Shown here: piece after piece, positions 2,930 through 37,475 of the stretch | Layout: each line of letters begins with the position of its first letter | Numbering within the stretch: the stretch's first letter is position 1 | DNA from: Escherichia phage fDHCT2 | DNA length: 64,000 nt | Sequence record: OR427838.1 | Reading direction: 5' to 3' (one strand) | Made by a program: the position numbers and the translations under genes | Notes under the pieces: model-generated | Told to the model about the DNA's origin: nothing | The model's database searches: none | Seen by the model: the letters and a program-made list of their open reading frames with translations, nothing else

Positions 2930-3190
2930 TTAATCAAATCGAATGGTCGACTTTTTAAAGAATAACCCAGAACAAACTGTTCCTTCAACCCTTTTACCTG
3001 TCGGCCCTACAGCAATAAAGCCTGTACGCTGGAAATCATCTTCAGAACAGCCGAATAAGTTGTATCCTGTGATTTGGATTTGTTCGTAGCCATTTGCATC
3101 CAATACACGGGTAGCATTATCGGCATCAGTACAACCAACCAACGAAACTGCTAGTACAAGAGCCGCAATAGAACGATTAACATATTTCAT
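2930..3190 (-). CDS. small lipoprotein
   Basis: 86 aa; signal peptide with lipobox LAVSLVGC. Confidence 0.6.
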   Translation of the reverse strand: MKYVNRSIAALVLAVSLVGCTDADNATRVLDANGYEQIQITGYNLFGCSEDDFQRTGFIAVGPTGKRVEGTVCSGLFFKKSTIRFD

Positions 3191-3196
3191 AATTTC

Positions 3197-3373
3197 TCAC
3201 TTAGTTAGCAGGTCATAGAACCCGCCGTTAACATGTTTAGGAGCTGAAACTAACCGAACAGCCAGCCGATGGCAATCAGGGCAAACATCATTATCTCTTT
3301 CAGAGATTTTCTTGATTTTTTCGTATTCTTTTGCACAGTCTTCGGATTGGCATTTGTAATCATAAAGTGGCAT
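3197..3373 (-). CDS. FmdB-family zinc-ribbon protein (58 aa, below ORF-track cutoff)
   Basis: hand translation MPLYDYKCQSEDCAKEYEKIKKISERDNDVCPDCHRLAVRLVSAPKH...; RBS AAGGAA. Confidence 0.55.
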   Translation of the reverse strand: MPLYDYKCQSEDCAKEYEKIKKISERDNDVCPDCHRLAVRLVSAPKHVNGGFYDLLTK

Positions 3374-3374
3374 A

Positions 3375-3761
3375 TTATTCCTTAAAGTGGGCTTTCAACA
3401 TCTGGTAAACGGTCCAGGCTTCAGAATTATTGGAGATAGTGATTTTGGTCAAAGGGAATTCGCTTGGCTCAGATGGAGCTGCGTCTTCAGACTGGTCTTC
3501 GTCTTCACTGTCAACTTCAACCATTTCTGTAAAGAATTTACGCTCACTAGCGTATATAACCATATCTTTATTATCGCCGTAAACCAGGTCGAAGTTGATT
3601 ACGCATCCGTTTGAAATTTTAACCGGGGAAAAACCTTCACCTTCAATAATAACATCGGCTACAATATTATTGATATCTCTACGACGGAATTCAGCTTCTG
3701 CCGCATCATCTTTAAAATAGTACCATTTACCTTTTTCAAATTCGAGTTCTTGATTAAGCAT
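3375..3761 (-). CDS. hypothetical acidic protein
   Basis: track ORF 3375-3854 trimmed to internal ATG 3761 (RBS GGAAGGAAA) to remove overlap. Confidence 0.5.
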   Translation of the reverse strand: MLNQELEFEKGKWYYFKDDAAEAEFRRRDINNIVADVIIEGEGFSPVKISNGCVINFDLVYGDNKDMVIYASERKFFTEMVEVDSEDEDQSEDAAPSEPSEFPLTKITISNNSEAWTVYQMLKAHFKE

Positions 3762-3972
3762 TGTAAGTTTCCTTCCAGAAGTCAGTACCTTCAGCAGTGA
3801 TTTCACGGAACACTGCATAGATAGGGTTTTTATCACCTTGATTTTCGTATACATAAACCGACGTTAAATGAGAAAACGTATCAGAATGTTCCTTTTGAAC
3901 CACGATTAAATCAGGGTTGAACAGAACATCTTCAAATTCTTCACGAGTAGAGTTCACAGTAACTTTAGCCAT
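3754..3972 (-). CDS. hypothetical protein (cef position)
   Basis: 72-aa ORF, RBS GAGAGGAAA, early promoter upstream. Confidence 0.5.
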   Translation of the reverse strand: MAKVTVNSTREEFEDVLFNPDLIVVQKEHSDTFSHLTSVYVYENQGDKNPIYAVFREITAEGTDFWKETYNA

Positions 3973-4002
3973 TTTATTTTCCTCTCGTTTGTTGATAGGG
4001 CA

Positions 4003-4032
4003 ATAATATCACTACCCTACCATAGTGTATAC
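4003..4032 (-). promoter_or_regulatory. T4-type early promoter
   Basis: minus GTATAC (4027-4032), 18 nt, TATTAT (4003-4008), then CCCTATCAAC. Confidence 0.55.
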
Positions 4033-4046
4033 TGTTTTTTTAAACT

Positions 4047-4613
4047 TTATGCAAAATGAATATCAGCGTACTCAACGATAAAGCTCTCAGGAACAACCTT
4101 AAAAGTTCCAAGGAACACGATATTATACAATTTGACACCTTCTTCAACCCACTGGTCGGTGATGTAACCGGACATACTAGTGGTTTCATAAGTCGGACCG
4201 TACTTGCATTTGTATTCAAACGGTTTAGGTGAAACGAAAAAGACACCTTTACCTAATTTCCATTTGAAATCAACGCCGACATGAGATTGGTCAATAGTTT
4301 CAACGTCTTGAGCTACTACGCCACGGATATCATTGCTTTCACATACATACCCATCATGGGATTCAACTTCTTCAACTACAGGAGCGATGTATCCGGTAAA
4401 TTCAGTCGATTCCAAGAATTTAGCACGCACATAACCGAATTGAGTTTCAGTCTGGGGATTTTTAGGAATGATACGAACTTTTACTTCATAATTTTCTTCA
4501 CTGACACCTTCTTTAAGTTGGATGCTAACAACTTCAACTAAACTGCCCGCAGCTTTTGAACGAGACTTTTTGGATACACGAACGATACTGCCGATATCGG
4601 AAATAGTAATCAT
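4047..4613 (-). CDS. hypothetical protein, paralog of 4687-5238
   Basis: 188 aa; shared C-terminal ...TDQW(V/I)E(E/D)GV(K/E)L(Y/L)N(I/V)V...VVP(E/R)S... Confidence 0.6.
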   Translation of the reverse strand: MITISDIGSIVRVSKKSRSKAAGSLVEVVSIQLKEGVSEENYEVKVRIIPKNPQTETQFGYVRAKFLESTEFTGYIAPVVEEVESHDGYVCESNDIRGVVAQDVETIDQSHVGVDFKWKLGKGVFFVSPKPFEYKCKYGPTYETTSMSGYITDQWVEEGVKLYNIVFLGTFKVVPESFIVEYADIHFA

Positions 4614-4655
4614 AATTTTTCTCTCTTGGTTAAAGGTTTATAATCCATGAGAGCC

Positions 4656-4684
4656 ATTATAACATGGCTCTCGATAAAGTAAAC
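4656..4684 (-). promoter_or_regulatory. T4-type early promoter
   Basis: minus GTTTAC (4679-4684), 17 nt, TATAAT (4656-4661); -10 in loop of GAGAGCCA/TGGCTCTC repeat. Confidence 0.65.
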
Positions 4685-4686
4685 TA

Positions 4687-5238
4687 TTAATTCAATACAT
4701 TAACCACTGCACTACGAGGTACTACGCTAAAATCACCAGCATGTACAACGTTCAGGAGTTCAACACCATCTTCAATCCACTGGTCTGTTACCCAACCACA
4801 GATAGGATTATCAAAAGGACGACGGATAGCCACTGCAGCACACAGAAGGTCGGTAGGGTCTTGTTCGACTTCGACTTCACGGAAAAGCCCAAATTCAGCT
4901 TCATAGACTAGGATTTTCTCTACTTTGTTATTATCTAACCGGCGGCCATGTATTACGTAAGATTTAGTAAACCAGTCACTTTTGGCGAATTCTTCAACAA
5001 TAAATTCGCCTTCGCCAAAAACATCAGTCAGAGTTTTATAACCGGAAATCAAGGCCTTAGTTTTAATTTCAGGTTCAACCAGTTTGTAGGTTTTGCCGAT
5101 TTCGATAGTCTGAGTAGTCATAGCGGTTTCCTTAATTTCCAGTGGTTTAACAGGGCATACATAAGTGCTTAAAACATCAAAATCAATCAGTTTAGCTGCC
5201 GGATTCGGGGTGTATTTAGGGTTGTAATTAAATTTCAT
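4687..5238 (-). CDS. hypothetical protein, paralog of 4047-4613
   Basis: 183-aa ORF; see paralog. Confidence 0.6.
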   Translation of the reverse strand: MKFNYNPKYTPNPAAKLIDFDVLSTYVCPVKPLEIKETAMTTQTIEIGKTYKLVEPEIKTKALISGYKTLTDVFGEGEFIVEEFAKSDWFTKSYVIHGRRLDNNKVEKILVYEAEFGLFREVEVEQDPTDLLCAAVAIRRPFDNPICGWVTDQWIEDGVELLNVVHAGDFSVVPRSAVVNVLN

Positions 5239-5744
5239 ATTGTTCTCAATTCAATAAAATCTACGAGTTCGGCATAGGATTTGCGGAACATTACTTGGCG
5301 GTCACCAATGACAACCTCATCTTCAGGTATTTCGTAAACAGCAAGATAGAATCCTTTAGAAGATAATTCTTCACGCTCTTCACGAGTGAACCAGCGCATC
5401 ATATCATACTCGCTGGCAAAAGCAAAATGGTAGAGATTAACAAACCAACCTGGAATATAATCATCACAGCCTTCATAATCAGGCTGGTTCCACTTAGTTC
5501 TAATGCTTTTATTAGAATTTTCCACCAACAAATTGTCTTGACCGGGTAGCGGAATATTTTTATTATTGGTATGGTGGTGCCTAAAATTGGGTCTGTCGAA
5601 ACCTACTTCCAATAACCAGCCTTCACTCCATTCGTCAAATGAGCCTCTATACGGTGTTAATTGGCGGCACTGTAGGTGGGTGATTGCTATGACATCGCTG
5701 TTATCTAAGATACTAAACGATGACTCAACTCGATAAATTTTCAT
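5235..5744 (-). CDS. hypothetical protein
   Basis: 169-aa ORF, RBS GAGGAG. Confidence 0.55.
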   Translation of the reverse strand: MKIYRVESSFSILDNSDVIAITHLQCRQLTPYRGSFDEWSEGWLLEVGFDRPNFRHHHTNNKNIPLPGQDNLLVENSNKSIRTKWNQPDYEGCDDYIPGWFVNLYHFAFASEYDMMRWFTREEREELSSKGFYLAVYEIPEDEVVIGDRQVMFRKSYAELVDFIELRTI

Positions 5745-5771: not shown

Positions 5772-5800
5772 ATAATATCATGTCATGAGGAGAAGTAAAC
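5772..5800 (-). promoter_or_regulatory. T4-type early promoter
   Basis: minus GTTTAC (5795-5800), 17 nt, TATTAT (5772-5777), CTATCAAC; flanked by CTCCTCATG/CATGAGGAG repeat. Confidence 0.65.
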
Positions 5801-5804
5801 ACTT

Positions 5805-6479
5805 TTATCGATTTTTTACACTTAACGGGTCAGGATTCTCAGGGACATCTTCCAGGCCCAAGGCATAACGTTGAGCATATTTCAGCATCAAGATGTCCTT
5901 GGCACAGTCATGGATAGAGTCATGAGCAACAAAGCCATTCAATGTTCCGTTAGGCAGAGGACACATGCTCAATCCGCGAGTCAGTGAATAGGCTTCGATA
6001 GCCGTACGGATATCACGTTGGTTCCAGAATTTAACCGGTTCTAATTTACTGGTATCAATTTCATTCTCAGGAACACCTTCAGAACGATAAGCATCGCGAA
6101 TAAGGTCGACTAAGATAGGAAAGTCAAATGACATTCCACGACACCACATCTGTGATTTCCACTGGTCTACATCATTTTTACGGCAATATTCTAAGAAGTT
6201 GCCGATGCCGATAGAAGTGCTCACATCCATTTCGGACGGCGCCAGGTTTTTACGTGCTTCGGGCCCTTGTTCTTTCCACCACTGTAAAGTGCTTTTAGAA
6301 AACAGTCGTTTATCACGTTGAGAAGCTAGGTCAAATTTAATACGAAGGCCTCGTTGAGTAAGCTCTTCAAACGTTTCTACTACCTCTGGATTTGGGTCGT
6401 AAGCAATTACGGCTAGGTCAATAACCGCCGCATTTTGGGTAGTGGCAAAGGTTTCGAAGTCAATAATTACATCTTTCAT
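5805..6479 (-). CDS. dexA: exonuclease A (DEDD 3'-5' exonuclease)
   Basis: 224 aa; MKDVIIDFETF... exonuclease motif; T4 position upstream of dda. Confidence 0.85.
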   Translation of the reverse strand: MKDVIIDFETFATTQNAAVIDLAVIAYDPNPEVVETFEELTQRGLRIKFDLASQRDKRLFSKSTLQWWKEQGPEARKNLAPSEMDVSTSIGIGNFLEYCRKNDVDQWKSQMWCRGMSFDFPILVDLIRDAYRSEGVPENEIDTSKLEPVKFWNQRDIRTAIEAYSLTRGLSMCPLPNGTLNGFVAHDSIHDCAKDILMLKYAQRYALGLEDVPENPDPLSVKNR

Positions 6480-6715
6480 TTAACGTACCTCATAAGGTCA
6501 CGGATTTGACCAACGGTGTAGTCTTCAATATAAACTGAAGAGATATTGTCGTCCATTAGACGCTGTATTGCGATAAAATCACTTTCAATCTCTTTAAGAG
6601 AATGCAAGACCTTATGAGCCTTGCCACGGATATTTGTATCGTCTTGGTTGACCTTAATAATATATTCTGTTTCAAATTTCAACTTATAAAATTGGTCTTT
6701 AGTTACTTTAATCAT
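6476..6715 (-). CDS. hypothetical small protein
   Basis: track ORF trimmed to ATG 6715 (RBS GAGGAAAAT) to avoid overlap with dda. Confidence 0.45.
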   Translation of the reverse strand: MIKVTKDQFYKLKFETEYIIKVNQDDTNIRGKAHKVLHSLKEIESDFIAIQRLMDDNISSVYIEDYTVGQIRDLMRYVK

Positions 6716-6722
6716 ATTTTCC

Positions 6723-8054
6723 TCAAACATAGTAGGCATCAGTACGAGCACGAGTAATACTAACATAAGCTAGCTGTGAAGCTAAATTCGCATCAGCCAT
6801 GTGCATACATGGGGTATAGATGAAACTGTTCTGGACAGTAAGACCCTGTGATTTATGGACGGTACTCACCGGAAGAGCCCGAACCTTAGTGAACATTCGC
6901 TTGGCTTTCCAGAAATCAGCCCACTTAGGTTTCTTACCTGTTCCACGCATAGCTTTGTACTCTGTAGCAACCTTAGCCAAGAAATAATGGAACTTCTCAA
7001 CTGAAGCCTCATCGATAACCTTTAAATGCTCTACATAGTACTCGTCGTCTTCATCAACAGATTCTACTTGTAGGTCCCAGTAATTAATCATTTGACGAGT
7101 GCCTACGTCCTTAGCAGACAAGAACAATGAGGTATGATTCACATCCAGAATACGAACCATTTGCCCGTTATTAAAAATGGTTTCAGAGAATTTCTTACCG
7201 TCGTATTCGAGCTCCTTCATAAAAGGCTCTTGCATCACGAGGATTTCACCCTTGATATAAGGTGCATCAGTTTCATAAAGCTTTTTACGAATAATGCTAT
7301 TCAGCTTTTCAACCGATTTATTTGTATAAGCAAACATCCTATTTTCAAATAAGGCATCCGCGTCTTTTACGATGGAAAAATAATTCATCATAAAATCTTT
7401 TAAAGCCGTTTGAGATTTAAAACCATGGACCCCGTGACCTTCGAATATACAATCTCGGAACCATCCACCATTACGGATTTCAGTAGCAACCTCAATGATA
7501 GGGGCATTACTACGCATTACTTCAGTAAGGTGCAGCTGTTTAATTTTAGGATGGGTAAAGAATGGAGACAACTGAGGACTACCATCACTTCCTGGTTCTA
7601 CAGGTTGTAACTGTGCTCGGTCGCCAATCCCTAGTACAGTGCACCATGGTGGAACCGACGCTTCGATAATCTTAAACAACTTGCCGTCAATCATCGAGCC
7701 TTCGTCGACCACAAGAACATTACATTTGCTCAAATCAGGAGCTTCACGCTGTTCAAAAATATCCTGGTCTTCGTATGTAGTCGGGTTAATCTTTAAGATT
7801 CGGTGGATTGTTGATGCTTCTTGGCCTGCGAGTTTCGACAATACCTTCTTGGCCGCGTGTGTAGGTGCGGTCAAAATAACTCCGAGTTCGCCATTCTTGA
7901 CTAAGTGGTCAAGAATAAATTTAGTAAGGGTCGTTTTACCTGTACCCGCAGGACCATTCAATGTAATCCATTCACCCTTACGTCGTTTAATAGCTTCAAT
8001 GATTTCTTTAAAGGCCGTCCGTTGCCCAATATTCAAGTCTTCAAATGTAATCAT
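6723..8054 (-). CDS. dda: Dda DNA helicase
   Basis: 443 aa; ...ITLNGPAGTGKTTLTKFI... near-collinear with remembered T4 Dda. Confidence 0.95.
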   Translation of the reverse strand: MITFEDLNIGQRTAFKEIIEAIKRRKGEWITLNGPAGTGKTTLTKFILDHLVKNGELGVILTAPTHAAKKVLSKLAGQEASTIHRILKINPTTYEDQDIFEQREAPDLSKCNVLVVDEGSMIDGKLFKIIEASVPPWCTVLGIGDRAQLQPVEPGSDGSPQLSPFFTHPKIKQLHLTEVMRSNAPIIEVATEIRNGGWFRDCIFEGHGVHGFKSQTALKDFMMNYFSIVKDADALFENRMFAYTNKSVEKLNSIIRKKLYETDAPYIKGEILVMQEPFMKELEYDGKKFSETIFNNGQMVRILDVNHTSLFLSAKDVGTRQMINYWDLQVESVDEDDEYYVEHLKVIDEASVEKFHYFLAKVATEYKAMRGTGKKPKWADFWKAKRMFTKVRALPVSTVHKSQGLTVQNSFIYTPCMHMADANLASQLAYVSITRARTDAYYV

Positions 8055-37445: not shown

Positions 37446-37475
37446 ATTATACTCGGGTCCCAAGAGTTTGTAAAC
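37446..37475 (-). promoter_or_regulatory. T4-type early promoter
   Basis: minus GTTTAC (37470-37475), 18 nt, GAGTATAAT; -10 in loop of GGGACC/GGTCCC repeat. Confidence 0.6.

Follow-up and report, generated by a model that had tools for sequence, protein, structure and literature searches.

The motB and motB.1 genes of a Dhakavirus-like phage: paralogs through a C-terminal barrel

Two neighboring open reading frames (ORFs) on the minus strand of the window, by which we mean the whole 64,000-nucleotide stretch of DNA analyzed here, encode proteins that end in a similar block and begin quite differently. Did they arise by a local duplication followed by divergence, and does each have its own early promoter, as the original prediction held? 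The two frames themselves are exactly where it had placed them, at 4047-4613 (188 amino acids plus stop) and 4687-5238 (183 amino acids plus stop).

Two genes with one common block

Megablast, the ORF listing and family scans identify the window as a Dhakavirus-like T4-type phage, with vB_EcoM_FB, QL01, AnYang, IME08 and WG01 at 90-93% nucleotide identity across the full 3.6 kb. According to the ORF listing and family scans, the pair lies inside a minus-strand early-gene block comprising gene 39 (1046-2863), 39.1 (2930-3190), 39.2 (3197-3373), goF (3375-3854 as the longest ORF), cef (3754-3972), the two frames, a 169-residue gene at 5235-5744, dexA (5805-6479), dexA.1 (6476-6766) and dda (6723-8054). 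This order is kept in IME08 and in T4, and the IME08 annotation names the three middle genes motB, motB.1 and motB.2. The third, the upstream partner of motB.1, matches phrog_1106 (E 3.4e-52), and its orthologue in contig L007 matches PF26820.

The pair is already described, and is an ordinary published feature of T4-like phages. Son et al. 2021 (PMC7827196) reported that T4 MotB and MotB.1 have a common conserved C-terminal domain and different N-terminal domains, proposed a duplication origin for the two genes and counted 40 other phages that carry both. Their supplementary tables include MotB and MotB.1 of IME08, QL01, WG01, JS98 and JS10, all close relatives of the window. A full-text literature search for 'MotB.1' returned only this article and that of Kim et al. 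2025 (PMC12152347).

The product of the first frame matches the whole PF17613 profile with 206.1 bits (the gathering cut-off of this Pfam family is 25 bits) and phrog_1671 with an E-value of 2.7e-70. It is 93% identical to IME08 MotB and 62% identical to T4 MotB, the protein described by Patterson-West et al. 2018 and Son et al. 2021 and classified in PF17613; between N-terminal domains, identity to T4 rises to 73%. Shared with T4 MotB are the KOW-type N-terminal domain, including the SRSKAAG segment, the C-terminal domain, the place between motB.1 (upstream) and cef (downstream), and an early promoter of its own. By these comparisons the frame at 4047-4613 is the orthologue of T4 MotB. The window protein is longer, with 188 residues against 162, and carries a 24-residue insertion in the linker between its domains.

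The second protein matches phrog_2333 over its full length (residues 1-183 against profile positions 1-210, E 4.5e-87), a family that T4 MotB.1 also matches (E 1.8e-68), and it matches PF17613 only at profile positions 119-153, the C-terminal third, with 34.7 bits. It is 49% identical overall to T4 MotB.1 (UniProt P39415, 'uncharacterized 13.8 kDa protein in motB-dexA intergenic region'), but identity differs sharply between domains, at about 24% for the N-terminal and 85% for the C-terminal one; the latter is also 82% identical to that of RB68 and contains the MotB.1-type signature DPTDLL...GWVTDQWIEDGVELLNVVHAG...VVPRS. Since its N-terminal part is only 10-17% identical to the KOW-type domain of MotB, the protein shares a domain with MotB without being its orthologue. 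The gene lies directly downstream of motB.2 and directly upstream of motB, the slot of T4 motB.1, with the same PHROG assignment (2333) and a start likewise packed tightly behind motB.2. The first 43 residues are a leader that T4 MotB.1 lacks, and the T4 protein aligns only from about residue 45. Many Tequatrovirus genomes also have the long form found in the window, with 63-91% identity to it.

The similarity between the two window proteins is confined to their C-terminal regions. BLASTP aligns residues 147-180 of MotB (MSGYITDQWVEEGVKLYNIVFLGTFKVVPESFIV, 4074-4175) with residues 146-179 of MotB.1 (ICGWVTDQWIEDGVELLNVVHAGDFSVVPRSAVV, 4702-4803) without a gap, with 18 of 34 residues identical (53%), 76% positives and an E-value of 3e-11. 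The core consensus is G(Y/W)(I/V)TDQW(V/I)E(E/D)GV(K/E)L; the motif originally noted is therefore real, except that it begins with GY in MotB and with GW in MotB.1. In a shuffle test, the Smith-Waterman score of the full proteins was 108, against 31.6 +/- 5.0 for shuffled sequences (z 15.1), and not one of 2000 shuffles reached it. The first 140 residues of each, compared in the same way, scored 28, where shuffled sequences averaged 29.1 (z -0.2), bearing out the claim that the N-terminal halves differ. We also compared family alignments, built from 26 and 32 database homologs, with hhalign: 52 columns were aligned with a probability of 98.7% and an E-value of 3e-16, residues 129-181 of MotB.1 matching residues 117-182 of MotB with an insertion of about 12 residues on the MotB side. 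This C-terminal domain was the sole match, and no N-terminal similarity was found even profile to profile.

Could such a short block, 34 residues in the pairwise alignment, reflect chance or composition instead of common descent? The BLASTP, shuffle and hhalign statistics lead us to reject this explanation, which also has to contend with two proteins that both score above a curated Pfam cut-off and with a block kept in hundreds of phages; we give it practically no credence. The original prediction had named random identity outside a short motif as evidence against duplication followed by divergence: identity outside the block is indeed random, so that this reading has to be amended, and the block itself is significant. 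MotB and MotB.1 are true paralogs, through the C-terminal barrel only, over about 55-80 residues. At the DNA level, 63 of 114 columns of the core are identical between the genes (55%), so the duplication must be old. No further copy of the block or of either domain was found in the 64-kb window.

Promoters and asymmetric transcription

We scanned the whole window with the T4-type early-promoter pattern GTTTAC-N15-18-TANNNT and obtained 21 matches, 20 of them on the minus strand, where 3.7 were expected. Two of these matches fall in the motB region. One, at 4656-4684, lies within the 73-nucleotide spacer between motB.1 and motB, and consists of GTTTACT, 16 nucleotides and TATAAT (4656-4661) preceded by TG. 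The other, GTTTACT, 16 nucleotides and TATTAT at 5772-5800, precedes motB.2. The ATG of motB.1 overlaps the stop codon of motB.2 in the sequence ATGA (5235-5238), leaving no spacer, and the last 180 nucleotides of motB.2 contain no match at the scan threshold. The original idea of a separate early promoter for each paralog therefore holds for motB but not for motB.1, which lies behind the motB.2 promoter. The element at 5772-5800 is the sole candidate promoter for motB.2 and motB.1, and this arrangement indicates that motB.1 is read as a second cistron, co-transcribed with motB.2, while motB is served by an early promoter of its own.

The layout in T4 is alike. Promoters are present only before motB.2 (GTTTAC-N17-TACTAT) and before motB, and the gap between motB.2 and motB.1 is 10 nucleotides; in three Tequatrovirus relatives it is 2 nucleotides.

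A perfect 9-bp hairpin with arms at 4664-4672 and 4649-4657 overlaps the motB promoter, the two together spanning 4649-4684, and its RNA fold has an energy of -21.4 kcal/mol (z -3.96). A promoter and hairpin occupy this position in T4 too, although the stem has another sequence. Such arrangements recall the PeSL (promoter-early stem-loop) cassettes of Arbiol et al. 2010 and Comeau et al. 2014, suggested as mediators of shuffling among T4-type genomes (PMC4122927), for which the consensus TTTACW-N17-TAYWAT was given for the T4/PST pair (PMC4122927). The element between motB.1 and motB has both components, a TTTACW-N17-TAYWAT promoter and an overlapping stem-loop, and the window and T4 both match the PeSL arrangement.

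Within motB.1 there is possibly a second translation start. The codon for Met40 (5119-5121) is preceded at 7 nucleotides by the sequence AAGGA (5129-5133), and Met40 and LEIKE are invariant in 26 homologs. The promoter scan gave no match at threshold for this putative internal start. The leader in which it lies is itself conserved: the alignment of leader DNA shows a reading frame kept across genera, with insertions and deletions in multiples of three, and residues 17-34 form an 18-residue motif (LIDFDVLSTYVCPVKPLE, 5137-5190) conserved in the 26 homologs.

Predicted folds and function

We modeled both proteins with AlphaFold2 from the family alignments and compared the whole models with the PDB using Foldseek. 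The MotB model (pLDDT 73) has a barrel at residues 1-68, a disordered stretch at 71-109 (pLDDT below 50) and a second barrel at 110-188. Together with the T4 alignment this delimits a KOW-type N-terminal barrel (residues 1-68, 4410-4613), a disordered linker (69-109, 4287-4409) and a C-terminal barrel (110-188, 4050-4286). In the MotB.1 model (pLDDT 67), residues 1-42 are disordered (pLDDT below 50), 44-122 form a barrel with one helix, and 130-183 form another barrel. From the model and the 26 homologs we distinguish a disordered but conserved leader (residues 1-43, 5110-5238), an N-terminal beta-barrel (44-125, 4864-5109) with strands predicted at 50-53, 78-86, 93-100, 105-112 and 119-121 and a helix at 61-74, and a C-terminal barrel (126-183, 4690-4863).

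Independently, both models retrieved the tandem Tudor domains of 53BP1 and UHRF1, Agenet and SAWADEE domains, and KOW6-7 of DSIF. All of these matches are marginal, with E-values of 7e-4 to 5e-3, TM-scores of 0.25-0.40, rmsd of 11-15 A and 9-16% sequence identity; the low TM-scores arise from the undefined orientation of the domains to each other. At the level of fold the best match is a tandem of SH3-like barrels, as in tandem Tudor, Agenet and KOW6-KOW7 modules, without any sequence relationship. The resemblance is a marginal one, seen in predicted models of moderate confidence, and would concern architecture only, not membership in these eukaryotic families. Sequence searches of the PDB returned no match for MotB and only chance-level matches for MotB.1, the best being a protein kinase family protein (E 0.006), with the designed cage TIP60 at E 0.27-0.58.

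For the C-terminal domain, Son et al. 2021 (PMC7827196) proposed an OB fold of the cold-shock DNA-binding type on HHpred evidence. Our whole-model comparison was dominated by SH3-like barrels, with one CspC-containing entry at rank 9 (probability 0.51). For the N-terminal domain of T4 MotB.1, Kim et al. 2025 (PMC12152347) described an LSm-like beta-barrel common to GoF and Frd.2. The bent antiparallel beta-sheet barrel of this family is also what is predicted for the N-terminal domain of the window protein, although the published assignment concerns T4-type MotB.1 and not the window allele. Residues 44-127 of the latter match the goF family phrog_622 (E 1.9e-5). A direct comparison with the GoF of the window was not significant, either by hhalign with shallow alignments (E 0.39) or by BLASTP (E 0.79), and the sequences suggest a link to GoF weakly at best. 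MotB gave no match to GoF either. Searched against BFVD, the MotB.1 model retrieved MotB.1 relatives, including T4 P39415, and, more weakly, MotB-type proteins with KOW domains.

What might the shared barrel do? Two reports on T4 MotB (PMC6070864, PMC7827196) describe a protein with tight but sequence-independent binding to DNA, which is recovered together with H-NS and StpA, acts on DNA coated by them, is toxic in excess and doubles the burst size. By analogy, the C-terminal barrel may be the part that makes contact, with nucleic acid or with a nucleoid protein, while the N-terminal module sets the target; MotB.1 would then probably use the same barrel for the same kind of contact as MotB, redirected by its own N-terminal module. 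In T4, deletion of motB.1 left burst and latent period normal, the protein ran as monomer and dimer, and it was without effect on the reporter used (Kim et al. 2025, PMC12152347). Judging by these T4 experiments, MotB.1 is dispensable in the laboratory.

Relatives and the history of the pair

A profile search of 1.84 billion representative proteins returned only 18 clusters, which means that the family is narrow. Copy number at the locus, which the original prediction proposed to compare among related phages, is indeed variable: Kanagawavirus has one gene, RB68 has three PF17613 genes in tandem, and in RB69 two copies of motB accompany one motB.1 and a 29-residue remnant (Son et al. 2021, PMC7827196).

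A single family gene lies between motB.2 and cef in the Kanagawavirus phages PEi20, Kosakonia 305 and CIP9 and on the metagenomic contig L009. In a joint alignment, the N-terminal domain of this Kanagawavirus-type protein is 37-40% identical to that of MotB and 16-18% identical to that of MotB.1, whereas its C-terminal domain is closer to MotB.1 (60-70%) than to MotB (41-43%). At the same locus, and with the 18-residue motif in the linker between its domains, one gene thus joins the halves that the window divides between two paralogs, a MotB-like N-terminal and a MotB.1-like C-terminal domain. The 24-residue insertion in the linker of window MotB aligns with this linker motif. In Son et al. 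2021 (PMC7827196), PEi20 and CIP9 fall under 'motB.1 only', and we noticed no discussion of the mixed nature of these proteins in that article. Such combinations are also seen in P0263 and P0266. The sole family gene on its contig, lying between motB.2 and cef, P0263 encodes a MotB-type KOW domain, a linker motif like the MotB.1 leader and a MotB.1-type C-terminal domain; in P0266, a KOW domain is followed by a C-terminal domain whose core is like that of MotB.1 and whose insertion is like that of MotB.

A MotB.1-type C-terminal domain joined to a MotB-type N-terminal domain in the same slot is what duplication of a whole gene predicts. Simple tandem deletion cannot yield the Kanagawavirus combination, because motB.1 precedes motB on the coding strand. 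On our reading of these alignments, the Kanagawavirus single gene favours a whole-gene duplication followed by replacement of an N-terminal domain. An ancestral gene with a KOW domain, a linker and the C-terminal domain would have been duplicated in tandem. In the downstream copy, motB, the KOW domain would have been retained, and change would have fallen on the C-terminal domain, which diverged and received an inserted hairpin; in the upstream copy, motB.1, the C-terminal domain would have stayed of the ancestral type, and another barrel would have taken the place of the lost KOW domain. The single-copy state of Kanagawavirus may be ancestral or result from secondary loss, since the DexA proteins of the window, T4 and Kanagawavirus are roughly equidistant (all at 63-71% identity); for the same reason we dropped the use of Kanagawavirus as an outgroup on DexA identity.

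Replacement also accounts for the state of the N-terminal domains better than ordinary divergence, in which the two halves would be one ancestral domain that has drifted beyond recognition after duplication of the whole gene. A small SH3-like beta-barrel is predicted for each N-terminal domain, and both full models retrieve the same tandem-barrel structures, as drift would have it. However, a common domain leaves no trace even between profiles, and while the N-terminal domain of MotB is still recognizably that of Kanagawavirus, that of MotB.1 compares with it at the level of random sequence. Among MotB.1 proteins with 75-85% identity in the C-terminal domain, the N-terminal domains are mutually unrelated, at 16-37% identity, which drift cannot account for over so short an evolutionary distance, and the C-terminal domain is found behind at least three unrelated types of N-terminal domain, in two- and three-domain variants; near-identical domains with unrelated partners argue for replacement or insertion, not for gradual change. 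The 18-residue motif, moreover, changes sides with the allele: ahead of the N-terminal domain in the window protein, it follows this domain and immediately precedes the C-terminal one in RB68 MotB.1, whose residues 97-113 match residues 18-34 of IME339 MotB.1 (E 2e-8). Drift of a single domain is, to our mind, highly improbable. Of the original prediction, the duplication remains plausible, as Son et al. 2021 had likewise proposed, but the N-terminal halves appear to be different exchangeable modules and not diverged versions of one.

If modules are exchanged, illegitimate or cassette-mediated recombination could also have fused a copy of just the C-terminal segment of a motB-like gene with a gene for a GoF-like barrel that already lay in the same hyperplastic region, with no duplication of the whole gene. 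This would explain why similarity is limited to the C-terminal 52-60 residues. The N-terminal domain of MotB.1 does match the PHROG family of goF, which lies two genes away; N-terminal domains are visibly shuffled in the motB family, and a PeSL-type promoter and hairpin stands between motB.1 and motB. Against such a capture, proteins that combine a KOW domain with a MotB.1-type C-terminal domain exist in the very same genomic slot, and they have the linker motif ahead of that domain in common as well. We regard capture as unlikely, more plausible all the same than simple drift. Duplication with N-terminal replacement belongs to the overall explanation in which we place considerable confidence: motB and motB.1 of a Dhakavirus-like phage, paralogs in their C-terminal region, with asymmetric transcription and with the history and function proposed above.

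The pair is a published case of modular evolution in the dispensable early region of T4-type phages and offers little beyond correct annotation. Our additions are modest: the predicted co-transcription of motB.1 with motB.2, the swapping of N-terminal halves and the mixture of MotB and MotB.1 domains in single-gene relatives. They do offer a concrete route to asking in which domain the activity of MotB towards DNA and H-NS resides, and what the role of MotB.1 is.

The motif FDxDxxxxYxxxxKP(L/I)E is conserved and, in one model, that of window MotB.1, predicted to be disordered. Tentatively, and with rather more doubt than conviction, we suggest that each paralog keeps the complementary half of an ancestral gene of the Kanagawavirus type, composed of KOW domain, motif and C-terminal domain (MotB the N-terminal half, MotB.1 the C-terminal one), and that the motif is a portable docking peptide on either side of which barrels have been inserted. 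Should it bind a host factor such as H-NS or StpA, the family would be a natural domain-swap series on a nucleoid-targeting scaffold.

Other variants illustrate the range of the family. On contig L007, from a near-identical phage with the same gene order, motB.1 encodes a three-domain protein of 249 residues, 87% identical to that of the window over 92% of its length, with an extra segment of about 82 residues at the N terminus in place of the first 16. P0255 has two N-terminal domains in tandem. One of the 18 clusters of the profile search, a protein of 1459 residues with 12 repeated weak stretches (P0265), was discarded as an unrelated repeat protein. The shortest variant, P0268, is a 43-residue remnant in which the first 14 residues of MotB.2 are joined to the last 29 of MotB.1.

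Promoter and hairpin upstream of motB

The early promoter of motB is overlain by a perfect 9-bp hairpin (stem GAGAGCCAT, loop gttata, stem ATGGCTCTC), the two together spanning 4649-4684 on the minus strand, and the spacer that holds both elements has a predicted RNA folding energy of -21.4 kcal/mol (z -3.96). Together, promoter and overlapping hairpin form a promoter-terminator cassette of the promoter-early stem-loop (PeSL) type. T4 likewise carries a promoter and hairpin in this spot (L002, the T4 locus, 2746-2782): the position is equal, whereas the stem has a different sequence (GGGACC...GGTCCC).

Across the whole window, we found 21 matches to GTTTAC-N15-18-TANNNT where 3.7 were expected, all but one of them (20/21) on the minus strand. 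This bias fits a long region of leftward early transcription. One early-promoter match, GTTTACAAACTCTTGGGACCCGAGTATAAT (37446-37475, minus strand), resembles the T4 motB element, being almost identical to GTTTACAAACTCTTGGGACCAGAGTATAAT, the promoter/hairpin upstream of motB in that phage. Judging by this resemblance, the T4 cassette would recur in fDHCT2 at a different locus.

Copy number and variant forms in the motB family

In phage RB68, a third PF17613 gene, RB68_010 (3730-4149 in its locus, L003; 139 aa, 72 bits), directly adjoins motB on its downstream side, and this phage therefore has three family genes in tandem. Variation also affects MotB.1 itself. A phage contig from a metagenome (ENA k141_78148, 170.7 kb; L007) has the gene order of the window and encodes a MotB.1 of 249 aa (3001-3750 in L007), 87% identical to that of the window, in which an additional N-terminal segment of about 82 residues, with no PHROG match, stands in place of the window protein's first 16 residues. 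At the sequence level, the difference between the two genes amounts to an indel of about 200 nt at the 5' end. Two further forms came from the representative-protein search. In P0255 (251 aa), two tandem MotB.1-type N-terminal barrels precede the C-terminal domain. P0268 (43 aa) consists of the N-terminal 14 residues of MotB.2 fused to the C-terminal 29 residues of MotB.1; it is a putative deletion remnant, comparable to the 29-aa RB69 peptide known from the literature.

Candidate starts of motB.1 and goF

Met40 of motB.1 is a candidate internal start (5119-5133, minus strand), with AAGGA 7 nt upstream; codon and AAGGA are both invariant among 26 homologs, and T4 MotB.1 can be aligned only from about residue 45 of the window protein. 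A shorter MotB.1 isoform beginning at Met40 is possible.

The longest goF ORF (3375-3854, minus strand) encodes 159 aa and has about 100 nt in common with cef. GoF homologs in the databases measure 110-145 aa, plus one 85-aa fragment, and their alignment begins at internal Met32 of this ORF (start near 3761); the real gene product is probably about 128 aa long. The Kanagawavirus goF genes of PEi20, Kosakonia 305 and CIP9 (L010, L011 and L012; positions 3229-4083), annotated at 255-269 aa, are roughly twice as long as their counterparts in the window and in T4, which suggests a further domain gain or fusion within the barrel family.
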